Below, piece after piece: positions 2,122-63,587 of a DNA stretch of 64,000 nucleotides. The translations under genes and the position numbers were made by a program. Source of the DNA: Bacteroidales bacterium (GTDB lineage: Bacteria > Bacteroidota > Bacteroidia > Bacteroidales > UBA3663); contig JAZNGG010000015.1 in the NCBI GenBank assembly GCA_045576355.1, positions 9,123-73,122 on the forward strand, written 5' to 3'. The notes beneath the pieces are model-generated. The model was given only the letters and a program-made list of their open reading frames with translations, was not told the DNA's origin and did not search any database. The first letter of the stretch is position 1. Each line of letters opens with the position of its first letter.

Positions 2122-5100
2122 ATGTCAGCAAAAGCGTGGAAAGAACAGGTGACCATCCCCACCTATGAAGTGGGCAAACCTGAAAAGAATCCCATATTTC
2201 TGGAGAAACGTGTCTATCAAGGTTCGAGCGGAGTAGTCTATCCTTACCCCGTGATCGAGTCAATGAGCGACGAGCGGGTGGACAAGGAGTATGAAGCCAT
2301 CTATCTCGAAAACGAATATATCAAAGTGATGATCCTGCCCGAGCTGGGCGGTCGTGTCCAGATGGCATACGACAAGATCAAGCAGCGTCATTTCGTCTAT
2401 TATAATCATGTCATCAAGCCTGCCCTGGTCGGCTTGGCCGGCCCCTGGATCAGTGGCGGCATCGAGTTCAACTGGCCGCAACACCACCGTCCATCGACCT
2501 ACCTGCCCGTCGATACGACGATCGAAGAGCATGCCGATGGTTCGGTCACAGTCTGGATCAACGAAATGGAGCGGATGTTCCACCAGAAAGGGATGGCAGG
2601 GTTCACTCTCCGTCCCGGTTGTGCCTATCTGGAGATAGAGGGCAGGCTGAGTAACCGCACCTCCATGCCGCAGACCTTCCTTTGGTGGGCCAATCCTGCG
2701 GTTGAGGTCAACGACTATTATCAGAGTGTTTTCCCGCCGGATGTCAATGCCGTGTTTGATCACGGCAAGCGAGCCGTCAGCTCCTTCCCCATAGCGACAG
2801 GCACCTATTATAAGATGGACTATTCGGCTGGTGTCGATATCTCCAACTATAAAAACATCAAAGTCCCGACCTCCTACATGGGCGTTAACTCCAAGTATGA
2901 CTTTGAGGGAGGTTATGAGAATGACACCCACGGAGGCATGCTACACGTGGCAAGCCACCATTTCAGCCCCGGCAAGAAACAATGGACCTGGGGCAACGGC
3001 GACTTCGGTCGTGCCTGGGATCGTTGTCTCACCGACGATGACTATGAGGGTGCACCCGGCGTATTCCGCCCCTACATTGAACTGATGGCAGGCATATATA
3101 CCGAAAACCAACCCGACTTCACCTGGCTGATGCCTTATGAGGAGAAACAGTTTGTGCAGTACTTCATGCCCTACCGTGAGTTAGGCATCGTCAAGCAGGC
3201 GACCAGAGATTTTGTCTTCAACATCGAGCAGGCTGCAGCGGGGAAAGTCCGTATCATGGTGATGAGTACTTCTCGTCAGCAGGTATATCTCTCTTTGCGT
3301 CACAAGGATTTGACTCAGGAATTTTATCAGAAGCAACTTACCCTCACGCCCGAAGAGATTCTGGAGGAGGAGATCCATGTCGGAGAATGCACTCTCAACG
3401 ATCTTCACTTCACCATCTCCAAAGATTTTGAGGGACAAGAGAGACTCACCCCCTCGGCACACTATCCCTTCCACGGTCGTATCGTACTGGAGTGGTATGC
3501 CGAGCCGGACGAGATCCGTCCCATCCCCGATGCCGCCGAGGCAGCACTCACTCCGCAAGAGACCAAGACCATCGATCAGCTTTACCTGACCGGTCTGCAC
3601 CTCGAGCAATATCGTCACGCCACATGGTCGGCGCTCAATTATTATGAGGAGGCTCTCCGTCGCGACCCGTTGGACTATCGATGCAACAATCAGATCGGCT
3701 TGTGGTATCTCCGCCGCGGACGATTCGATAAGGCTGAACAATATCTGCGCACTGCGGTCAAAGTCTTGCAGAAGCGTAACCCCAACCCCTATGATGGCGA
3801 ACCGCTCTTCAATCTGGCACTCTGCTTAAAACACCAATTCAAGTTGCAAGAGGCTTACCACTGGTTTTGGAAATCGACATGGAACAAGGCCTGGGCAGAT
3901 GCCGGATACTTCGAAGCCGCCTGCATCAGTACCGGCCAGCGCCGCTATGAAGAGGCTCTCGACGAGGTGGAACGCGCACTCATCAGCAATGCTCGCAACC
4001 ACAAGGCACGCGCTCTTAAAGCGATCATCTTGCGCAAGATGGGACGCACCGACGAGGCTCTGACATGGATCCGCTCGTCTCTCGCAGTCGATCTCTTCAA
4101 CTATGTCTGCCGCTACGAGCAGTACCTCCTCACCCGAGATGAGACCTTGCTGGCAGAGTTGAAGCGACTCTTGCGCGGATCATGCCATAACTATGACGAG
4201 GTGGCATTAGACTATCGGCAGGCAGGACTCACCGATGAGGCTCAGGCCATCTGGCGCTTAGCCATCGAGGAGCAAGCCGTCAGCCCCATGACCTATTATT
4301 ATATGGGTGACTACGAGCAAGCTGAAAAGATCTCTCCGGACTATTGCTTCCCCAACTCCGTCGATGCCATCATCGCACTCACACTCGCCAAGGCATGCAA
4401 CCCACAAGGCGCTCGCGCACCCTATTATCTCGGATGTCTCTATTACGACAAGCGTCAGTATGACCTGGCACGCGACAATTGGGAACTCTCTGCTCGGCTC
4501 GACCCCGAGTTCCCCACCGTGTGGCGCAACCTGGCTCTCTATTATTACAACAAACAGAAGTGCCGCGACAAAGCGATCGACTGCATGGAGCGGGCATTCA
4601 GCCTCGACACCACAGACAGCCGCATCCTCATGGAGCTGGATCAACTCTACAAAGTGACCGGCAAGCCTCACGCAGAGCGACTCGAATTTTTGGAGCAATA
4701 CCCGGCACTCATCGCCGAACGCGACGATCTGCTGCTCGAACAGATCACTCTGCTCAATCAGCTCGGTCACTACCGCGAGGCTATGAACCTCCTCGACAGA
4801 CACATCTTCCATCCGTGGGAAGGTGGCGAAGGCAAGGTGCCGGCACAATATCAATTCTCCCGTGTGGAATGGGCGAAGCAGATATTAAAAGAGGAAAAAG
4901 GGAAAAAGCAGATCGATAAAGCAAAGATGGATCTGTGTCTGGACCTTCTCCTGGAGTGTTTCGACTACCCGCATCATTTGGGAGAAGGCAAACTGCTGGG
5001 GGCACAGGAAAATGACTTCTCATACTTCATGGGCCTTACCTACGAGTATCTGGATGACCTCCCGACCGCTCGCATCTATTGGGAGAATGCCACAGTAGGA

Positions 5101-5475
5101 TCCACCGAGCCGGCTGCTGCAATGTACTATAACGATGCCAAACCCGAAAAGATCTTCTATCAAGGCATGGCTCTGCGCAAGCTGGGACGCATCGATGAAG
5201 CCAACAGCCGTTTCCACAAGTTGGTCAACTACGGCAAACAGCACATCTTCGAACCACAGGTGATGGACTACTTTGCGGTCTCACTCCCCGACCTGCAGAT
5301 CTGGGATGGTGATCTCAACCTGAAAAACCGCATCCACTGCCTCTTCATGCTCGCCCTTGGCTACATGGGTCTCAATGAGATCCATAAGGCAGAGCGCTAT
5401 ATGAAAGAAGTGGAGCAACTGGACATCAATCACCAGGGGATACAAGCACTACGAACATTCATGGAGCAGTATTAG
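2122..5475 (+). CDS. DUF5107 domain protein with a long TPR-repeat C-terminal region (1117 aa)
   Basis: The N-terminus (IPTYEVGKPEKNPIFLEKRVYQGSSGVVYPYP ... LPELGGRV ... IKPALVGLAGPWISGGIEFNWPQHHR) matches my memory of the DUF5107 signature. The remainder is TPR-like helical repeats. It starts 24 nt after the GH43 stop and is probably co-transcribed. Confidence 0.75.
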   Translation: MSAKAWKEQVTIPTYEVGKPEKNPIFLEKRVYQGSSGVVYPYPVIESMSDERVDKEYEAIYLENEYIKVMILPELGGRVQMAYDKIKQRHFVYYNHVIKPALVGLAGPWISGGIEFNWPQHHRPSTYLPVDTTIEEHADGSVTVWINEMERMFHQKGMAGFTLRPGCAYLEIEGRLSNRTSMPQTFLWWANPAVEVNDYYQSVFPPDVNAVFDHGKRAVSSFPIATGTYYKMDYSAGVDISNYKNIKVPTSYMGVNSKYDFEGGYENDTHGGMLHVASHHFSPGKKQWTWGNGDFGRAWDRCLTDDDYEGAPGVFRPYIELMAGIYTENQPDFTWLMPYEEKQFVQYFMPYRELGIVKQATRDFVFNIEQAAAGKVRIMVMSTSRQQVYLSLRHKDLTQEFYQKQLTLTPEEILEEEIHVGECTLNDLHFTISKDFEGQERLTPSAHYPFHGRIVLEWYAEPDEIRPIPDAAEAALTPQETKTIDQLYLTGLHLEQYRHATWSALNYYEEALRRDPLDYRCNNQIGLWYLRRGRFDKAEQYLRTAVKVLQKRNPNPYDGEPLFNLALCLKHQFKLQEAYHWFWKSTWNKAWADAGYFEAACISTGQRRYEEALDEVERALISNARNHKARALKAIILRKMGRTDEALTWIRSSLAVDLFNYVCRYEQYLLTRDETLLAELKRLLRGSCHNYDEVALDYRQAGLTDEAQAIWRLAIEEQAVSPMTYYYMGDYEQAEKISPDYCFPNSVDAIIALTLAKACNPQGARAPYYLGCLYYDKRQYDLARDNWELSARLDPEFPTVWRNLALYYYNKQKCRDKAIDCMERAFSLDTTDSRILMELDQLYKVTGKPHAERLEFLEQYPALIAERDDLLLEQITLLNQLGHYREAMNLLDRHIFHPWEGGEGKVPAQYQFSRVEWAKQILKEEKGKKQIDKAKMDLCLDLLLECFDYPHHLGEGKLLGAQENDFSYFMGLTYEYLDDLPTARIYWENATVGSTEPAAAMYYNDAKPEKIFYQGMALRKLGRIDEANSRFHKLVNYGKQHIFEPQVMDYFAVSLPDLQIWDGDLNLKNRIHCLFMLALGYMGLNEIHKAERYMKEVEQLDINHQGIQALRTFMEQY

Positions 5476-5477
5476 TT

Positions 5478-5650
5478 GATGGGGACTTCGTCCTGCTATG
5501 GCTGATGGCGATGGCGCGATTGGTTTAAGGGTACCTTTTAGGCATTAAGGGCATCAAGGCCTTAAAATTATAATCCTCTGCCATCAGCCATAGCAGGACG
5601 CAACCCCTAAACCCTTAAACCCCTAAACCAACAAACCAACAAACCAAACG
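5478..5650. repeat. Mosaic intergenic repeat locus R1
   Basis: A perfect 20-bp inverted repeat, GTCCTGCTATGGCTGATGGC (5490-5509) and GCCATCAGCCATAGCAGGAC (5580-5599), surrounds a 70-bp spacer. It is followed by the heptamer run CCCTAAA/CCAACAA (5603-5648). The locus begins 3 nt after the upstream stop codon. Confidence 0.85.
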
Positions 5651-5670
5651 TTAAAAAACCTTTCCCCCTC

Positions 5671-5701
5671 TTGACATTGGCTTTCGGATGTTATATCTTT
5701 G
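5671..5701 (+). promoter_or_regulatory. Bacteroides-type promoter of candidate sRNA A
   Basis: TTGACA at 5671-5676 and a perfect -7 box TAtcTTTG at 5694-5701. The whole 45-bp block is conserved in copy B. Confidence 0.5.
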
Positions 5702-5707
5702 TAAAGT

Positions 5708-5787
5708 TTAAGTTGAAAGATAGATGAAGCGTTGAGACGTTGCAGGGCAGATCGCCCTACATGTTTCGATGCTTCATCGCTTTTTTG
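5708..5787 (+). ncRNA. Candidate small RNA A (about 80 nt) ending in a long hairpin plus U-tract
   Basis: Hairpin at 5723-5778 (GATGAAGC...GCTTCATC outer stem, GGGC/GCCC apical stem) followed by GCTTTTTTG. Several G-U pairs exist only on the + strand. A paralog lies at 19255-19356 (-). Confidence 0.4.
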
Positions 5788-5878
5788 TCTCCCTGCACTC
5801 GGCCGTTCGGATGAAAATTCAATGGTCCGAAAGAGTCCATTCATAGAGTTTATTTGCTTAAAAGGCCGAGGCTTTTTA

Positions 5879-6032
5879 CTTCACGAGCGTACCCTCATTA
5901 TTCAACGAGCGTACCCTCGTTGGTCGATGAGCGTACGCTCGTTGTGCAACGAGGCTACGCGTGTTAAAAATTAGCCCCGCCGCGTTACACTAAATAAGCC
6001 AATGAAAATCTCATGAGAGCCAATGCGTGAAA
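5879..6032. repeat. 22-bp-period minisatellite, array A
   Basis: Units are CTTCACGAGCGTACCCTCATTA, TTCAACGAGCGTACCCTCGTTG, GTCGATGAGCGTACGCTCGTTG and TGCAACGAGGCTACGCGTGTTA (5879-5966). About 3 decayed units follow. Confidence 0.85.
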
Positions 6033-6224
6033 ATTTTCTCTTTTTCAACTTTTAGCTCAGACTTTACTATGATTTTCACTTTATGTTCAGATCCCTATTC
6101 AAAAAATCATTAAGAGGCATCCATTGTGTTAGGCTTCATACCGAACTATATGCAAAATCGGATAAAATGATATACGAAGATGGCATTTACATGTTAATTT
6201 TCTAAAAAACGATAGCTCAGGGCT

Positions 6225-6492
6225 GCGAGTTGAGAAGAGTACAGAGAACAGAGTACAGAGAACAGAGAAGCCATAGCGGACGAAGTCCCTTATTTGGTTT
6301 AGAAGTTTAAAGGTTTAGAAGTTTATTTTTTCAACCCTTCAACCCTTCAACCACTAAACCAACCATAGCCATCAGCCATAGCAGGACGCAACCCCTAAAC
6401 CACTAAACCACTAAACCACTCAACCACTCAACCCCTAAACCAACCATAGCCATAGCCATCAGCCATAGCAGGGCGCAGCCCCTAAACCCCTC
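6225..6492. repeat. Mosaic intergenic repeat locus R2
   Basis: A GA-rich run is followed by CCATAGCGGACGAAGTCC, then GGTTTAGAAGTTTA twice, CAACCCTT twice, CCATAGCC/CCATCAGCC units and ACCACTAA/ACCACTCA runs. The same words recur at R3, R7 and R8. Confidence 0.85.
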
Positions 6493-6594
6493 AACCCAAA
6501 AAGAGCGGCATGCCGACATAAAATCGACACACCGCCCCGTCCCACGCTGTTAGGATATTATCTATACAAGACCCTCAAAGAGGTCCCGCACAAA

Positions 6595-6818: not shown

Positions 6819-9800
6819 TTACTTCACGAGCACCTTCTTACCGCCCACGATGTAGAGACCCGGAGCCTTCACTTGCTCCACCTTCTGACCCTGGAGGTTA
6901 TAGATGTCGGCGGCATGCTGCTCTGCTGTTACACCTTCAATACCGGTCTCAGCAGTAGCGATACGCACCTTCGGTGCTGCGGCAGCTGCCGGGAGCACGA
7001 GGAATGCCTTATTAGCCGGGATGTAGCTACCTGTGTACTGATAGAATGCGGTCTCGCTGTCGATGGTAGTGAGCGCATAGATCGAACCACTGAAGTTGGA
7101 TGCAGCCGTACGCACTGCCACACCACTGAGATCTGACTCAACAGCTTCAGTCTCCCCGGTATAAGCCACCATATCGTAACTACCAGGTTCACCGGCAAGC
7201 ACCACACCGGTCTGAGCCGGGATATAACCCTCAGTAAGTTCAACGAGGCTGAGATAATCAGCGGCGTCAGACAATGCACCAACGTATGCTGTCAAACCTG
7301 CAGGCACCGCCACAGCATGATTAGCATAGAAAGTAGAATATCCGCTTTCGTTGATGGTGAGCGTAATGTTCTCGATAGGCTCATAGCATACGGAAATCAG
7401 CAAATTGGCTTGAGTACCTCCCGTACATGCAAAATCTATAGTATTAACAGCATTCACATTCTTGATCAAAAGGTTGCAAGCAGAAGTCGCTGTTTTATCT
7501 GTCAGTACGAGAGACTCTGAGATGATGTTATTCACATAGTCTCCATCTGCATATACACCCTCGATGGTTACAGCTTCGTCATAGTTAGAGTTACCGACCA
7601 AGCGAATATGTTTCAATTTATAACCTGCGTTAGGAGTAATCCGGAAACCTTTCACCTCTCCGGCAGTCTGACCTGTACGGATCTTCAGACCATCTGAAAT
7701 GTTGTTTCCGCTCTCTCCTCCGGCAATATAAGCACCGGGCACGGTATATGAGGTTCCGACATTATCCTTATTCGTTTCACTACCGTTTTCCTTAGTTACT
7801 GTTTCCCAATCAGCTGTCGTTGGATATACTACCTTAACAAGACTGATATAACCGGCATCTCCACCCACTACTATAGTATTCTTTGCGTCAGTACCGGAAA
7901 TCGTATAGCTGATGGTCTTACCCGCAGCGTAATCGGTACTACCCTCGATGGTGGTAGAAGACAACTCGTTATAGGCTGTAATAGTAACTATTGCGCCTTG
8001 ACAAGAAGGGAAACTAAATATGGTACCATTATTCACCTGTGCCCACTCATCAGAGCGACCGATATTATAGATTTTACCATTGGTTCCATCCAAATCAAGT
8101 TTGAGATCCATAGTAACACCTTCCACAGACACCTGTGTCACAAGAATTCCTTTTTTACCTTGATAATTCAAAGCAGGAGCACCATTTTTAGGTCCGAAAT
8201 ACCAATTAGCAGTTATAGGTTCATAATCATGTTTTGCCAATGACACAGTATTTTCTGTAAATACCGGGGTCAATGTGACATCTTCTGTGATAGTTACTTT
8301 GGCACCTATATTATAGGTAGTATTTCCATCGGTCCAACCGGTCAAGGTGTATCCCTCTTTATAGAGAGTCTTATTAGTCGGGATGGTAACCTGACCTCCA
8401 TTATCAACATATTCTACTTCAGGCACGATCCCTTCTACAGACTCTACAGAACCTAAACCATAAGCAACAACCAACAACTTCTCAAAATTTGCAGTCAAAT
8501 TGACATTGGCAGAAAGAGAAGCAATCGCGTAAGTTGCATTTTCAGAGATTACATTAGACTCTGCATCTGTCCAATTGACAAATTTATAACCCGTATTGGC
8601 ATTGGCTGTAAATGATACTGCTGTACCCTCGTCAAAACTTGAGCCGGCAGGAGACTGTGTAATAGTTCCTGCTTCTGCAGGAGAAACAGAAGTTGTCACT
8701 GTGTACTGTGGCACCTCTATAATTGTTCCGGCATACTCTCCCTCGATTTTCACATTGGCAAAACCGACATGCTTTCCTGGATCCAGGTTATAAACATAAA
8801 CGGTCAGATAAAAATCATCTGAAATAGCCTCAAATCCGGTAATATCCAACTCGAATGAAACATCTCCGGCATCACCATTATTACGAATCGGCTTGACTCC
8901 GGTAGCCAACGTTTTAGAAACATCATCTCCGGCACTCACAACGATATCAAACAAACCACCTCCGGTGCCGAAACGACAAATATCGGCACTCACTTTCTTC
9001 GGTGTAAATGTCAATCCACTTTTCAAATCCACTGCCCAAGAAAAAGAATGTCCGTTGGTCTTTTTTGTAACTTTTGCAGATGGAGTAGCAGTAGTGAAGA
9101 CTACACTATTATAACCGGTCTGTGCTTTTTGACCGGACATCTCTGATCCAAGAGAGAAAGATGCAGTAGAAACGACATTATCTACTGACACTTCGTATGC
9201 AGGAGTTGTAGTACCCTCACTCATCGTCCATGAAACAGCTACACTGGTAGTCTCTTCAAAATTGGCGGTCAAGTTAATGTCTGCAGAAACATTATCAATA
9301 GTATAAGAAGCATCCGTAGAGACTTCATTACCCTCGCCGTCTGTCCAGTTTTGAAATGCATAACCGGATTTAGCAGAAGCATTGAGTGTTACAGAACCGC
9401 CCTCATACACTTCAGTCCCGTTGGCTGGAGTTACTACACCGGCATCAGCAGGGTTTACAGATGTCGTAATTGTGTACTTGGAAGCTGAAAGAGAGACTAA
9501 CTCTCCGGTCAATTGCAACTTTTCAGCGGCAAGATATTTAGAATTACTACCAGCATAATAATAATAGACCTTAACATTTATGGCTCCTGTCAAATTACTA
9601 ACAGAAAGGTTCTCCGTAAAAGTCGAATTAGAAATAGATGAATTATTATAATTAGATACTGTATAGCTTTTGGGAGTATTAATAGTAGTAGCAACATCAT
9701 CTACAACATTCTCTACAAGCACTTTATAAGTAAAATTATTACTAACTAAAAAAACGGAGTACAACTGTGAAAGGCTCAAAGAATAACCATCTGGCACATC

Positions 9801-10380: not shown

Positions 10381-10548
10381 AAGTAAGAAAAAGAGCAAAG
10401 AGGAAACTGAAAACAAAGCCATAATCTATCGCCATCAGCCATAGCGGGCGCAGCCACAAGCCCTCGCCATAGCAGGACGAAGTCCCCCTGCCATAGCCAT
10501 AGCCATAAGCCATAGCGGGCGCAGCCCTTTAAACCCCTCAACCACCCC
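10381..10548. repeat. Mosaic intergenic repeat locus R3
   Basis: A GA-rich tract is followed by CCATCAGCCATAGCGGGCGCAGCC, CCATAGCAGGACGAAGTCC, CCATAGCC twice, CCATAGCGGGCGCAGCCC and finally TTAAACCCCTCAACC. Confidence 0.85.
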
Positions 10549-15913: not shown

Positions 15914-16170
15914 AGGGCTGATGGCTGCAATGGCTCATAGTGAGGGCTTATGGGGCTGCGCCCGCTATGGCTGATGGCGATAGCTTATAGCTTTGTTTTC
16001 ACCTTTCTCCTTTCCCCTTTCAGTTTTCTCCTTTCCTCTTATCAAGGCGCAGCCCCTTATCACGCGCAACCAACGACCAAAGAGAGTAACCCTTCAACCC
16101 CTCAGCCCCAAAACCCCTCAACTCCTAAAACCCTCAACTCCTAAACCAACAAACCAATAAACCAATAAAA
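15914..16170. repeat. Mosaic intergenic repeat locus R4 (two head-to-head modules)
   Basis: GGCTGATGGC/CTATGGC units and GGGGCTGCGCCC are followed by a CT-rich tract. Then come GGCGCAGCCCC, CGCGCAACCAACGACCAAAGAG and CCCTCAAC/CCTAAACC/CAACAAAC heptamer runs. Confidence 0.85.
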
Positions 16171-17334: not shown

Positions 17335-17570
17335 GGTTTAGGAGTTGAGGGGTTGAGGAGTTTAGGGGCTGCGCCCCACTATGGCTGGGACTTCGTCCAC
17401 TATGACTGATGGCGATGGCTGGGGCAAAGCCCACTATGGCTGATGGCGATGGCTATGGCTTTCCACTTTTCGCTGTTCTCTTTTCTCTTGGAATATGGCG
17501 TTGTTTTCATCTTTCCTCTTTCCTCTTTTCTCTTTCCTCTGTACTGTCATATTTTTTTCTCACACAGAAA
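17335..17570. repeat. Mosaic intergenic repeat locus R5 (reverse orientation)
   Basis: GGTTTAGG/GTTGAGG heptamers, GGGGCTGCGCCCC, GGGACTTCGTCC, GGGGCAAAGCCC and CTATGGCTGATGGCGATGGC units, then a CT-rich tract and GTACTGTCATATTTTTTTCTCACACAGAA. It abuts the fmt stop codon. Confidence 0.85.
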
Positions 17571-18895: not shown

Positions 18896-18991
18896 AAGTT
18901 TAAAAAATATTAACGCTCCATTGCCATCTCAGTTTGACAATTAAGGAGACGTCGGGCGAAGTTTTTAGGAAAAATGAAACAAGAAAAAATT

Positions 18992-19190
18992 TTCACTCAT
19001 CGGCTCGCGTAAGATCACGGATCGGCACGTGTTGTTTCACGCGTCGAGTCTCGTTACATAACGCGTCGAGTCTCGTTGCATAACACGTCGGCATGTGTTT
19101 AAACACGCGTAGCCTTGTTGCATGATTCGCGTAGCCTTGTTATGTCATGAGGGTAGCCTTGTTACGTCATGAGGGTAGCCACTTCAAACA
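18992..19190. repeat. 22-bp-period minisatellite, array B (about 8-9 units)
   Basis: The + strand units include TCACGCGTCGAGTCTCGTTACA, TAACGCGTCGAGTCTCGTTGCA, TAACACGTCGGCATGTGTTTAA, ACACGCGTAGCCTTGTTGCATG, ATTCGCGTAGCCTTGTTATGTC, ATGAGGGTAGCCTTGTTACGTC and ATGAGGGTAGCCACTTCAAACA. Confidence 0.85.
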
Positions 19191-19254
19191 CTTAAACCTA
19201 TGTTTTGTCTCACTCGAACCTATGAATTTTAGTGGGATAACAGAGTGTGAAGAC

Positions 19255-19356
19255 AAAAAAAAGATGAAGCATCGAAACATGGAGGGCGATTCACCCTATG
19301 ACGTCTCAACGCTTCATCGTTTACTACCCCTAAACTTGGGGTAATCACCAAAAATA
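19255..19356 (-). ncRNA. Candidate small RNA B (about 100 nt), paralog of candidate A
   Basis: Read on the minus strand: hairpin 19318-19263 (GATGAAGCGTTGAGACGTCATAGGGTGAATCGCCCTCCATGTTTCGATGCTTCATC) followed by T8 (19262-19255). The 5' segment differs from copy A. Confidence 0.4.
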
Positions 19357-19361
19357 TAATA

Positions 19362-19392
19362 CAAAGATACAACAATCAAAAGCCGATGTCAA
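19362..19392 (-). promoter_or_regulatory. Bacteroides-type promoter of candidate sRNA B
   Basis: Read on the minus strand: TTGACA (19392-19387) and TAtcTTTG (19369-19362). The block is nearly identical to 5671-5701. Confidence 0.5.
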
Positions 19393-19575
19393 GAGGGGAA
19401 AAGTTTTTTTAACAATTCGGTGCTGCGGCGAAAGAACAGAGAACAGAGGAAAGAGGAAAGATGAAAGGAGAAAGGAGAAAACGGATAGCCATAGTGGACG
19501 AAGTCCCTAAGCCATCTGCCATCGCCAATAGCCATAGTGGGCTTTGCCCCAGCAATAGCGGAGAATGATTTGGTA

Positions 19576-19728
19576 TTTTTGCACACAGAAGACACAGAAC
19601 CCGCGTAGCACACGACCGAAGGAAATAACACACAGAGCGCACATGTTTCGCAGTGCTTCCCTTCCGGATGGTAAACGCAAGCGTAAGCGTGCGTTTTCTG
19701 TGTATTTTATGTATTCTGTGTGCAAAAA
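19576..19728. repeat. 153-bp unit bounded by 15-bp inverted repeats
   Basis: TTTTTGCACACAGAA (19576-19590) pairs with TTCTGTGTGCAAAAA (19714-19728). An internal hairpin ACGCAAGC-GTAA-GCGTGCGT is present. Confidence 0.75.
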
Positions 19729-19833
19729 AAATGACAGTACAAAGAAAAGAGAAAAGAGAAAAGAGGAAAGGAGAAAACAAAGCAATCTGCCATAGTGGGC
19801 TTTGCCCCAGCAATAGCGGAGAATGACTTGGTA

Positions 19834-20018
19834 TTTTTGCACACAGAAAACACAGAACCCGCGTAGCCCACGACCAAAGGGAGTAAGACACAGACCACGC
19901 GTAGCACACGACCGAAGGAAATAACACACAGAGCGCACATGTTTCGCAGTGCTTCCATTCCGGATGGTAAACGCAAGCGTAAGCGTGCGTTTTCTGTGTA
20001 TTTTGTGTATTCTGTGTG
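19834..20018. repeat. Second inverted-repeat-bounded unit (with a roughly 30-bp internal duplication)
   Basis: TTTTTGCACACAGAA (19834-19848) pairs with TTCTGTGTG (20010-20018). The CGCGTAGCxCACGACCxAAG word is duplicated inside. Confidence 0.7.
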
Positions 20019-20400
20019 AGACAAAAACTGTAGAAGACGGCTTTAAGGGCTAAAAAAGGCAAAAAGGGCAAAAAGGCATCCAACCAACCGCATAGTAATA
20101 ACAAGAGTACAGAGAAAAGTGAAAGGAGAAAGGAGAAAGGAGAAAACAAAGCCATCTGCCATCGCCATCAGCCATAGTGGGGCGCAGCCCCTAAACTCCT
20201 CAACCCCTAAACCCCTAAACCAAACAGGGCGCAGCCCTAAACTCCTCAACCAACCACAAATCATTTTCAGTAAATATACACATTTTATGCGCCATAAATA
20301 TAAATTTCATACGTTTTCTGTATCTTTTTCCCATTATTTTGCTATTTTACCAAAAATTCTGCTTATTTTTGCGCCATTGATTAAAAAACTTTATGATGCT

Positions 20401-31917: not shown

Positions 31918-31998
31918 CGTTTTTATCTTGGAAAAAAGAAGTTTCTCTCTCTCTTTTCTCTCCCATGAGAGCCTTTCTCTCACCGTTCTGTCAGCCTA

Positions 31999-32086
31999 TA
32001 CACATTACACGGCAGCGTCATACACGTTACACGGCGGCGTCGTGCAAGTCACACGGCGGCATCATGCAAATACATTTCCGAAACAT
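31999..32086. repeat. 22-bp-period minisatellite, array D (different unit sequence)
   Basis: Units are TACACATTACACGGCAGCGTCA, TACACGTTACACGGCGGCGTCG, TGCAAGTCACACGGCGGCATCA and a decayed TGCAAATACATTTCCGAAACAT. The array is preceded by a CT-rich tract. Confidence 0.8.
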
Positions 32087-47815: not shown

Positions 47816-47947
47816 CTTCACGAGGGTACGCTCATGACGCAACGAGGGTACGCTCGTGAGGCAATGAGGCTACGCTCGTGATACAACGAGGGTACGCTCG
47901 TGAGGCGATGAGGCTACGCGCGTTATTCAACGGGACTCTTGACAAAT
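47816..47947. repeat. 22-bp-period minisatellite, array C (cleanest copy)
   Basis: Units are CTTCACGAGGGTACGCTCATGA, CGCAACGAGGGTACGCTCGTGA, GGCAATGAGGCTACGCTCGTGA, TACAACGAGGGTACGCTCGTGA, GGCGATGAGGCTACGCGCGTTA and one decayed unit. Confidence 0.85.
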
Positions 47948-57960: not shown

Positions 57961-58614
57961 ATTACTTTATCCCCATCGATCATTAGCCCCAAAAGACGAT
58001 ATTAAGCTATTGCTGTGTCTGTTTTCAGACGATAGTGCACACCTTCTCACCCGTCTTACGCTAATCGGACAACTCCTGTTGGATCTATGTTGCCTTATGC
58101 TCTATATATTAATCAGTAAATAAAACTATATTCATCCCTTAACATAGATAATAAGAACGCTTTAAATAAGCATGAAGAACTCCAATTATTTAATAAATAC
58201 AATATTGCGGCGGATTATACATAACATTGTGGAGCATTATCCCAAATATTGTGTATAATTGTACTGCGTATTGTGTACATTTTTATGAAGGCATTTTTTA
58301 TGGGTTTGTTTGCCTGTCCTAATACTTTTAATAAGCGTTCCTATCTACTTTCTTGTGCTATTCTTTTTGGAGTATGTCCCGTTATGTTTATAAACACCTC
58401 TGCACCAAGTATGACGACCTCAGGAGGGCAAGCAAATGCGCACTTACCGACAGACGTTCATTGGGAAAGAGCCCTAAAACCGGATTCTGACGATAGCTTA
58501 TAAAGTAGAACCAGCCATAATATCAAGCAAACCTTAATCTTCAGAGCTGCGTCTTCGAGAGGCAACTTGATGGTCTAAAGACCGACTTGGGGTTAATCAC
58601 ATTATTACATAGCT

Positions 58615-61971: not shown

Positions 61972-62163
61972 TTAGAGAAAAGGAAAACTGAAAGGTGAAA
62001 ACTGAAAACAAAGCCAAAAGCCATAGCGGACGAAGTCCTTGTTTAGTTTAGAAGTTTATTTTTTAGCACGCGAAGCCCATGACCAAATAAAGATGAAAAC
62101 TGAAAACAAAACCATCAGCCATAGCAAGGCGCAGTCCCCTAAACCACTAAACCAACACTGCCA
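61972..62163. repeat. Mosaic intergenic repeat locus R7
   Basis: A GA tract, CCATAGCGGACGAAGTCC, TTGTTTAGTTTAGAAGTTTATTTTTT, CGCGAAGCCCATGACCAAATAAAG, a second GA tract, CCATCAGCCATAGCAAGGCGCAGTCCCC and CTAAACCACTAAACC. Confidence 0.85.
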
Positions 62164-63198
62164 TCAGCCAATATTCCACTTTGCCACTGCATCAAAGAAA
62201 GCTTCTATATTGGCAGCAGATACTCCGGGAGGAATATCACAACCCGAGGAGATAACAAAATTGCGATATGTCTGAGTAGCATCCAAGAGTTTCAGAGTCT
62301 CCTTACGCACCTCGTCCGGACTTGCCTGTTGGAAAATACTAACAGGATCAATATTACCCATCACTAAGACATCTGAGGGACACTCCTGCAAAGCAGCTGT
62401 CATATCGATCTTATTACCGAAATGATAAGCCGCAGCACCTGAAGCCACCATGGCCGAAGTGCATTGTCCTGTATTGCCACAATTATGAAGGATTACCATA
62501 AAATGCTCATCCTGAACACGCTCCACGATTTCCTTGACATAAACCGAGGAGAAGAGGCGGCAATCATCGTCTGAAAGGAGTCCTGCTGCCGGCTCAGCCA
62601 TCATAACCCCCTGCACGCCACAGGCTTTCAACGCCAAGCAGTAATCGATCAGAAATGCCGTACACTTCTCCAGCAACCGGCGCGCAGCAGCCGGATTGAC
62701 ATAGATCAGCATCATGATCTCAGACATGTCATAAAGTCGGCCGGCCAAAGAGTAGGGTCCGATACAACCCGCCAAGACCGGACGATCTGTGATGCTCCGA
62801 GAGAGGAGCAGATTGGCACGCAGATATTCGGGTACGCGACCGGCAGAAAGCGCCGGAACCTGCAGACGATCGATGTCTCGCTCGTTGTGGAGCAGCCTGC
62901 CGACGACACTCGGCACTTCATCTTCCGGAAAGACCACCTCTGCGCCAAAAGCCTCAGCCTCCACCGTCAGATCCATAATCACCGTGGCAGCTGCACCCGG
63001 ATAACGATGAGCGACAGCCTCAACGGCTTCGGCATGAACACGACCATCGGTCACCGCACGACACACAGTCTGTCCGATCATTTCGATTCCCGGATGAGTC
63101 ATAATCGGGCAAGCCACCCGATTATGTGACACCATAATCTCATTTGCCCAATGGGACATATCACACTGCTTCATTGTATAACTCTTTAATTCTTTCAC
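62164..63198 (-). CDS. Uroporphyrinogen decarboxylase-family methyltransferase (MtaA/CmuA-like)
   Basis: 344 aa with a URO-D fold. It is typical of corrinoid-dependent methyltransferase systems. Confidence 0.75.
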   Translation of the reverse strand: MKELKSYTMKQCDMSHWANEIMVSHNRVACPIMTHPGIEMIGQTVCRAVTDGRVHAEAVEAVAHRYPGAAATVIMDLTVEAEAFGAEVVFPEDEVPSVVGRLLHNERDIDRLQVPALSAGRVPEYLRANLLLSRSITDRPVLAGCIGPYSLAGRLYDMSEIMMLIYVNPAAARRLLEKCTAFLIDYCLALKACGVQGVMMAEPAAGLLSDDDCRLFSSVYVKEIVERVQDEHFMVILHNCGNTGQCTSAMVASGAAAYHFGNKIDMTAALQECPSDVLVMGNIDPVSIFQQASPDEVRKETLKLLDATQTYRNFVISSGCDIPPGVSAANIEAFFDAVAKWNIG

Positions 63199-63321: not shown

Positions 63322-63562
63322 CAAAGAAAAGTAAAGAGCAAAGAGAAGCCATCAACCATTGCGGACGAAGTCCTTGTTTGGTTTAAAAGTTTAAAGGTTT
63401 AGAAGTTTATTTTTTCAACCCTTCAACCACTCAAACCTTCAACCCGCGAAGCCCACGACCAAATAAAGAGCAAAGATGAAAGAGCAAAGCCATAGCCATC
63501 GCCATCAGCCATAGCAGGGCGCAGCCCTTTAAACCCCTCAACCCTTCAACCACTCAACCAAA
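63322..63562. repeat. Mosaic intergenic repeat locus R8
   Basis: Same module order as R7 and R2. A GA tract, GCGGACGAAGTCC, TTGTTTGGTTTAAAAGTTTAAAGGTTTAGAAGTTTATTTTTT, CAACCCTTCAACC, CGCGAAGCCCACGACCAAATAAAG, a second GA tract, CCATAGCC/CCATCGCC/CCATCAGCCATAGCAGGGCGCAGCCC and heptamers. Confidence 0.85.
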
Positions 63563-63587
63563 ACAAAACCAATTACTACTATACACG

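Follow-up and report, generated by a model that had tools for sequence, protein, structure and literature searches.

Introduction

Multicopy families of small RNAs (sRNAs) with canonical promoters are known in Bacteroides, namely the FopS/GibS family and a six-member family found beside transposases and invertases (PMC11697453). Here we describe the analysis of a 64,000-nt stretch of DNA of an uncultured Bacteroidales bacterium (assembly GCA_045576355.1, contig JAZNGG010000015.1, forward-strand positions 9,123 to 73,122), in the following called the window, which contains two related copies of an intergenic element made of a promoter-like sequence, a long hairpin and a U-tract. Copy A is located at 5650-5787 on the + strand and copy B at 19412-19255 on the - strand, and all coordinates given for copy A and copy B refer to these strands. 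We read both copies as paralogous, self-contained candidate genes for small RNAs and would give this reading a probability of about 0.55.

The candidate resembles the sRNAs of the FopS/GibS type in being intergenic and noncoding, in its predicted length of about 80-100 nt, in having its own Bacteroidota promoter and intrinsic terminator with each copy, and in forming several paralogs per genome which are possibly spread by mobile DNA. The members of the FopS family share a conserved single-stranded seed (R1), are present in 12-15 copies per genome and are conserved across the Bacteroidaceae (PMC11697453). In contrast, the candidate conserves a double-stranded stem, its exposed tail is variable, it is present in two copies and nothing similar is found outside its lineage. 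Rfam likewise contained nothing similar, the presence of a FopS/GibS model in Rfam being unconfirmed.

Closer to the host are the lineage-specific intergenic sRNAs of Segatella copri, the ScnR set and SrcF, which measure 75-477 nt and were detected by differential RNA sequencing and Northern blots (bioRxiv 10.1101/2024.04.05.588293). With these the candidate has in common a host of the Prevotellaceae type, the -7/-33 promoter logic, the size range and the low conservation beyond the species complex. The candidate differs in being known from sequence alone and in resembling none of the described families in its sequence.

Composite repeats are a second kind of described system with which this locus can be compared. 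BrickBuilt, a MITE (miniature inverted-repeat transposable element)/minisatellite of Porphyromonas gingivalis, is built from a leader, repeats of 23 nt and a tail, has promoter activity, a restricted host range and no Rfam match, and is present in 19 copies bounded by IS5-type terminal inverted repeats (PMC4596501). Likewise the element described here is intergenic, species-restricted and modular, with head-to-tail repeats of 22-23 nt that are not separated by spacers and vary in number, with promoter elements in the leader, terminators nearby and no Rfam match. Unlike BrickBuilt it has no terminal inverted repeats, two to three units are in view in the 64-kb window, and its best-conserved part is the promoter together with the terminator hairpin, a closed unit that is not described for BrickBuilt. 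The BOX elements of Streptococcus pneumoniae have a plan similar to that of BrickBuilt.

Promoter, hairpin and terminator

The sequence-only reading of the window which we followed up had proposed an sRNA gene with TTGACA at 5671-5676, the box TAtcTTTG at 5694-5701, a hairpin at 5723-5778 and a U-tract. Direct reading confirmed each of these elements at its position. TTGACA constitutes the -33/-35 element, is the same in copy B, and is followed after a spacer of 17 nt by the Bacteroidota -7 box (TATCTTTG, at 5694-5701 in copy A and 19369-19362 in copy B). Upstream lies a conserved block GTTAAAAAACCTTTCCCCCTC (5650-5670), first an A-tract and then a C-rich part, which is the left edge of the homology in the alignment of the two copies. 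Both copies thus display the arrangement recognized by the housekeeping sigma factor of Bacteroidota (sigma ABfr type), a -7 box TAnnTTTG with a -33 element 17 nt upstream. The promoter of copy A matches 10 of 12 consensus positions and is the top sigma-70-like site of its intergenic region; the promoter of copy B likewise is the top promoter-like site of its own. Only three sites of the form TTGACA-N15-19-TAnnTTTG are present in the 64 kb, where 0.04 are expected, and two of them are copies A and B. The -7 box alone occurs 45 times, with 35 sites inside the non-coding 19% of the window and mostly 12-130 nt 5' of gene starts on the same strand. We therefore conclude that this genome uses this type of promoter.

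From the position of the -7 box a start of transcription can be deduced that would give copy A a single-stranded 5' tail AAAGUUUAAGUUGAAAGAUA (5703-5722). It is followed by the 56-nt hairpin at 5723-5778, which according to fold and pair counts has a lower stem of 18 bp (5723-5740 paired with 5761-5778), an internal loop and above it an apical GGGC/GCCC stem of 4-5 bp closed by the loop AGAUC. The earlier count of at least four G-U stem pairs holds, since the lower stem of copy A contains exactly four (G5731-U5770, U5733-G5768, G5736-U5765 and G5739-U5762). The + strand RNA of copy A (5706-5790) folds with -38.6 kcal/mol, compared to -18.7 +/- 2.9 for shuffled sequences (z = -6.9; equalled by 0 of 200 shuffles), and with -27.4 kcal/mol for the - strand RNA. 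Folding of the 77-nt core RNA gave the same strand preference in both copies, with -36.2 versus -27.0 kcal/mol for sense and antisense of copy A and -33.8 versus -18.2 for copy B, and the z-scores of the hairpin range from -6.9 to -7.2 on the sense strand. With DNA parameters the strand asymmetry is small (-15.3 versus -12.9 kcal/mol for copy A, -12.6 versus -8.3 for copy B).

The hairpin of copy A is directly followed by the sequence GCTTTTTTG (5779-5787), GC and then U6, with the six T at 5781-5786; in copy B there is a U8 tract. On the transcribed strand each copy thus has a stable stem-loop followed by a run of U residues as in an intrinsic terminator, and the opposite strand of copy B is without a U-tract, which makes the terminator unidirectional. 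A stem-loop containing G+C with the U-tract immediately behind it and this unidirectionality are properties of Rho-independent terminators. What distinguishes the hairpin from these is the unusual length of the stem (23 bp), its location 21-43 nt after its own promoter and a conservation that goes beyond the needs of termination.

Conservation between the two copies

The sequence-only reading had suggested a search for homologs with nhmmer. Together with blastn this search returned one paralog with E = 1.7e-17, copy B, which occupies about 19412-19243 of the minus strand, and an unfiltered search of the whole window with a covariance model found only copies A and B (102.5 and 102 bits). In copy B the upstream block, TTGACA (19392-19387) and the -7 box extend over 19362-19412. 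The 56-nt hairpin (19263-19318) has a lower stem as in copy A and an apical GGGUG/CGCCC stem with a U-G pair, and the U8 tract occupies 19255-19262. Compared with copy A, 22 nt (19338-19359) are inserted after the -7 box and before the hairpin; they create another -7 box, TATTTTTG (19356-19349), and supply a small additional hairpin (19345-19323) with its 5' arm. In both copies the hairpin is found 21-43 nt 3' of its own promoter.

The identity between the copies varies strongly from segment to segment. The block with the A-tract, the C-rich part and TTGACA (5650-5676) is identical at 25 of 27 positions (93%), the promoter spacer at 71%, and the segment from the -7 box to the start (5694-5705) at all 12 positions. 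The 5' tail is identical at only 47%, and all that is common to both tails is AAGUUUA, which is situated at the 5' end in copy A and in a hairpin loop in copy B. The arms of the lower stem are again without any change (18/18 each, 36/36 in total), while the apical 20 nt of the hairpin are 65% and the U-tract 83% identical. Beyond the U-tract the homology continues for about 270 nt at 60-66% identity and then ends. Given a neighbouring divergence of about 35%, zero changes in 36 stem positions have a probability of 0.65^36 or about 2e-7.

The hairpins of the two copies differ by seven substitutions, all of which are in loops or preserve pairing. Of the 23 stem pairs 22 are invariant in the two sequences and one has a one-sided change from C-G to U-G in copy B; a disruption of the stem, which would have spoken against the proposed gene, is not observed in the paralog. 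The changed pair would become an A-C mismatch on the opposite strand and pairs on the sense strand only. It reinforces the earlier argument from the G-U pairs, namely that the structure makes sense only as RNA of the strand read from the promoter, and this argument holds in both copies. The promoter, the strand-specific hairpin and the U-tract are kept in order and orientation while their surroundings drift, and an insertion of 22 nt was tolerated exactly between promoter and hairpin. Selection on a small transcription unit would account for this pattern.

Coding potential

According to the sequence-only reading no meaningful open reading frame (ORF) is present, the frames named being of 3 and 17 codons. 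Copy A also overlaps a 25-codon ORF starting with ATG (5769-5846), an 80-codon ORF starting with TTG (5732-5974) and a 73-codon antisense ORF (5623-5844), so that the list was incomplete. The conclusion itself stands: none of these three frames is kept in copy B in frame and length, and for the ORFs of copy A neither Pfam matches nor relatives were found. We therefore rejected a coding function. With its own promoter, its own terminator and an intergenic, noncoding location the element has the sequence properties of an independent sRNA gene.

Proposed model

The two copies could work as follows. A near-consensus promoter for the housekeeping sigma factor, TTGACA-N17-TAtcTTTG, would start transcription about 5 nt past the -7 box, and the transcript would be ended by its own hairpin and U-tract, so that copy A would yield about 83 nt of RNA and copy B about 100-115 nt. 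A short variable 5' tail and a long stem-loop containing G-U pairs would essentially make up either transcript. Since the lower stem is invariant including its wobbles and the tail and loops are variable, we take the stem to be the part that carries the function. Its role would in the first place be that of terminator and stability element, and possibly also that of a double-stranded ligand which a protein or nuclease would recognize by its sequence. A conserved seed of the classical kind is less likely: AAGUUUA is the only shared and exposed sequence and lies at the 5' end in A and in a hairpin loop in B. The genes appear to be carried as the leader of a composite repeat of about 400 nt confined to the lineage, which probably is also the route of their duplication.

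By type the element is another single-lineage Bacteroidota candidate sRNA that belongs to no known family. If it is transcribed, the two copies would be a new sibling family of small RNAs. Their host, an uncultured gut or rumen bacterium of the Prevotella-like kind that degrades plant polysaccharides, belongs to a group whose RNA regulators are almost uncharted and apparently turn over quickly. The combination of invariant stem and variable tail argues against the usual design with a pairing seed, and the leader position in a repeat that bears a minisatellite would be a concrete example of how sRNA genes may duplicate and spread within a genome. As a sequence-based candidate from a single lineage its immediate impact is modest.

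The composite repeat

Copies A and B are the leader of a homologous block of about 400 nt that continues with a spacer of 60-95 nt, a tandem array of 22-nt units and a tail. The sequence-only reading had not noticed this larger block. Over this length both copies follow the plan of modular multicopy intergenic repeats (leader, 22-nt repeats, tail). In copy A the spacer homologous to copy B (5791-5882) is 65% identical and contains a second stem CTCGGCC...GGCCGAG followed by GCTTTTT, which is found in this copy only. The array ACGAGCGTACCCTCGTTGTTCA follows at 5883-5970 with about 3-4 partly palindromic units, as seen with Tandem Repeats Finder (TRF), in the repeat family and by pattern matches. 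The tail module (5971-6055) contains two GCCAATG motifs and GTGAAAATTTTCTC and forms the right edge of the alignable region. In copy B the region 18960-19254 comprises the homologous spacer, arrays at 19180-19109 and at 19090-19039, and the tail, here with GCCGAT motifs. TRF reports 3.2-3.3 units, partly palindromic (ACGAGCGTACGCTCGT), for the arrays of A and B.

Arrays with a strict 22-nt period were observed at 5883-5953, 19039-19180, 47820-47932, 31998-32069 and 58201-58253, of which the last three are without leader. Many of the array units hold the 16-nt palindrome ACGAGCGTACGCTCGT and resemble arrays of protein-binding sites of the operator or centromere type. The array at 47820-47932, array C, has a -7 box TATTTTTG immediately upstream (47779). 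We considered array C as a decayed third copy and rejected this, as the similarity of its upstream part to the leader is marginal for copy A (9 of 500 shuffles) and non-significant for copy B and no hairpin is present. Using the 22-nt array as search anchor we found similar CAAGGCTACGC arrays, with no homologous leader, in the rumen Bacteroidales metagenome-assembled genome (MAG) RUG14560 (contig positions 4240-4590). Because arrays are found without leader both at array C and in this MAG, the leader is not an obligatory part of the array.

Terminal inverted repeats of the A/B unit were not detected, the best end-to-end matches being no better than about 4% of shuffles and different in A and B, and no target-site duplication is evident at the edges of the homology. 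Each unit has three GCCRAT motifs, an inverted one within the promoter spacer and two more in the tail (copy A: 5675-5681, 5998-6004 and 6019-6025; copy B: 19382-19388, 19020-19026 and 18998-19004). The motif reads GCCAAT at all three sites of copy A and GCCGAT at all three sites of copy B, and this consistent A/G difference hints at pairing, conversion or subfamily-specific recognition.

Genomic setting

The window is part of the core chromosome of a Bacteroidales organism, uncultured and Prevotella-like, that degrades plant polysaccharides. It encodes GH43 and GH31 enzymes, pectate lyases, a hybrid two-component regulator, RNase Y, TatC, fmt, TyrRS and GlyRS. No gene for a transposase, Y1 transposase, integrase, relaxase or recombinase was found among the ORFs of the 64 kb.

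Copy A lies in a gap of 1.3 kb between convergent genes. The gene upstream, encoding a DUF5107/TPR protein (2122-5475, +), is co-directional, and downstream there is no co-directional gene for 11 kb. The sequence-only reading had stated that no flanking gene needs a terminator here. This is wrong for copy A, as its hairpin is the sole + strand site resembling an intrinsic terminator between the DUF5107/TPR gene and the next gene. Copy B is located between the divergent genes fmt (-) and acetyl-CoA hydrolase (+), without a co-directional gene upstream, and is directed toward fmt, which is 640 nt away and has a -7 box of its own 70 nt from its start. With no co-directional gene before it and a separate promoter for fmt behind it, the promoter-terminator unit of copy B is closed on itself, and this is the strongest argument against taking the hairpin for a plain terminator.

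Alternative explanations

Several observations weigh against two sRNA genes. Target prediction over the 32 translation-initiation regions of the window gave none that scored above the shuffled controls. A single-stranded seed conserved between the paralogs was not found, as tails and loops of A and B differ. Covariation analysis, which the sequence-only reading had recommended, yielded one pairing-preserving change and not a single compensatory one among the 23 pairs, and with two copies and no compensatory change the RNA structure lacks covariation support. The identity of the arms at 36 of 36 positions, wobbles included, exceeds what a terminator needs and could be due to gene conversion or to a role at the DNA level. 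Moreover the unit lies within a larger repeat, so that the conservation might serve the repeat instead of the RNA, and the hairpin of copy A may end the messenger RNA (mRNA) of the DUF5107/TPR gene upstream. The proposed independent + strand sRNA gene is thus supported in part. It came through the tests made here, is strengthened by the paralog, in which promoter, stem and U-tract are kept, and is the explanation that we prefer; the missing compensatory changes, the location as repeat leader and the possible use as terminator of the upstream gene limit it.

The promoter and hairpin could be no more than the leader module of a composite, perhaps once-mobile repeat of the BrickBuilt or BOX kind, with an RNA that has no function itself. 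Promoter and terminator would then be signals borne by the element or by-products, which might insulate the array or drive transcription around it. The homology of A and B, which over about 400 nt includes spacer, array and tail, the additional arrays at 47820-47932, 31998-32069 and 58201-58253 and the density of other intergenic repeats in this genome, several of them with -7 boxes, are in line with this explanation. BrickBuilt shares the modular plan, the promoter activity of leader and tail and the restricted host range (PMC4596501). We nevertheless find it doubtful, though possible, as the unit ends have neither terminal inverted repeats nor target duplications, no transposase or integrase is encoded in the window, and the arrays at array C and in the other MAG do without the promoter-hairpin or a homologous leader. 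Within the unit, moreover, promoter boxes and stem have been kept far better than array and tail, which points to the transcription unit itself as the object of selection. This explanation is in part compatible with that of two sRNA genes. An element-borne RNA gene of a new kind, in which a composite minisatellite repeat would bear a small structured RNA of its own and duplicate it, we hold to be unlikely; to the same low degree we would expect the invariant stem in such an element to be the ligand of a double-stranded RNA-binding protein, a nuclease or a protein that binds the 22-nt arrays. If this were true, the RNA would be tied to how the repeat family occupying the intergenic regions is maintained or regulated.

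The hairpin could also act as DNA, either as a strand-specific hairpin of single-stranded DNA or as an imperfect palindrome recognized by a protein, for example like a repetitive extragenic palindromic (REP) element with its REP-associated tyrosine transposase (RAYT), an IS200/IS605 end, an oriT-like site beside repeats for accessory proteins or a recombinase site, the promoter being incidental. Arms that are identical down to the positions of the mismatches are expected for sequence-specific recognition by a protein. The G-T mismatches would favour the top strand as single-stranded DNA, too, the partly palindromic 22-nt units nearby resemble protein-binding sites, and GCCRATG shows the same A/G base difference at all three sites of each unit. 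A DNA-level role would, however, leave unexplained why consensus promoter and U-tract are conserved in order and orientation in both copies, and the strand asymmetry is large with RNA parameters and small with DNA parameters (-15.3 versus -12.9 kcal/mol). In addition, the window lacks a gene for a Y1 transposase, relaxase or recombinase, and the covariance search of the whole window gave two copies only, unlike what is seen for REP/RAYT or IS200/IS605 hairpins, so we regard such a role as quite unlikely. A plain intrinsic terminator that belongs to the upstream gene and was passively duplicated along with a chance promoter-like sequence in front of it would have the canonical design of a hairpin followed by a U-tract and would supply the DUF5107/TPR gene with its only downstream terminator-like site. 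Yet copy B has no co-directional gene upstream, as the acetyl-CoA hydrolase gene next to it is divergent. The promoter comes close to the consensus, is a rarity in the window and has been conserved in each of its boxes, and passive DNA is not expected to hold 36 of 36 stem positions amid 35% divergence; we judge this origin very unlikely. As to a promoter-proximal attenuator, in which a conditional terminator would gate read-through into array and tail and in copy B toward fmt, promoter, terminator and conserved downstream block do follow each other in both copies, copy B faces fmt at a distance of 640 nt, and copy A has a second terminator-like stem ahead of its array. But a conserved anti-terminator pairing is missing, the 5' tails being 47% identical and different in length by 22 nt, copy A has no co-directional gene downstream for 11 kb, fmt has its own promoter, and no riboswitch or leader family matches, all of which makes an attenuator highly improbable.

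Search for relatives

The comparison with Rfam proposed by the sequence-only reading was carried out with Rfam 15 on the whole window and gave no family at the gathering score; at E <= 10 only meaningless matches to microRNA precursors appeared around both copies. Assignment to a known RNA family was thus rejected for want of an Rfam match. A degenerate pattern of the hairpin had no match in 185,579 GTDB species genomes, JGI metagenomes and viral contigs, and blastn with the 421-nt unit found nothing in plasmid and phage collections. A six-frame pseudo-protein query with X linkers also gave no match, a result that, like other negatives from such composite queries, is unreliable, since the search also missed the window's own 73-aa ORF, which is present in the collection and shares 50 identical residues with the query; the 73-aa ORF as direct query found only itself. 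In Prevotellaceae sRNAs conservation beyond the species complex is typically lacking (bioRxiv 10.1101/2024.04.05.588293). As these sRNAs are rarely conserved more widely, the missing homologs outside the lineage are to be expected and do not count as evidence against the candidate.

The host species is thinly sampled. The DUF5107 protein has one exact record, on an 87-kb NCBI contig, and the next relative is 79% identical. ERR15157066, ERR15157024, DRR768612 and SRR24653741 are metagenome runs in which the organism is represented. Relatives with this gene (72-79% amino acid identity) have compact intergenic regions containing neither the element nor the repeat families. Short-read assemblies of the same species are 97.8-99.6% identical at the nucleotide level; of the contigs examined those beside copy A stop at REP-like repeats, and none reaches copy A or copy B.

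A pattern with the promoter only was tried on metagenomes and discarded, as it matched only the queA promoter of unrelated Bacteroidota with 33% GC. The copy B promoter with its spacer (19393-19362) is, strikingly, identical at 28 of 32 positions to this queA promoter CTTGACATCGGCTTTaaaaTGTTGTATCTTTG in contigs of a JGI freshwater metagenome, which probably reflects chance or convergence on a strong promoter sequence.

Other repeats of the window

Most long intergenic regions of the window are occupied by a REP-like repeat family, GCCATCAGCCATAGCAGGGCGCAGCCCC with small GC hairpins together with telomere-like runs of 8-nt periodicity (CCCTAAAC / CCACTAAA), which the loci of the closest relatives lack. 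It is found at 5480-5650, 6260-6520, 10400-10540, 15950-16170, 17386-17550, 19430-20230, 62000-62170 and 63345-63570. Immediately behind the DUF5107 stop codon this family forms a long inverted repeat (5482-5607) with arms of 28 nt that are 89% complementary and 70 nt apart; it has no U-tract and may stabilize the mRNA at its 3' end. At 19531-20027 there are repeats of 143 nt and 106 nt which are 93-95% identical and about 258-296 nt apart. Each contains an internal -7 box TATTTTTGCACAC (19574 and 19832) facing the acetyl-CoA hydrolase gene, and across these repeats a spurious ORF of 248 aa (19409-20155) has been called in a public protein collection.

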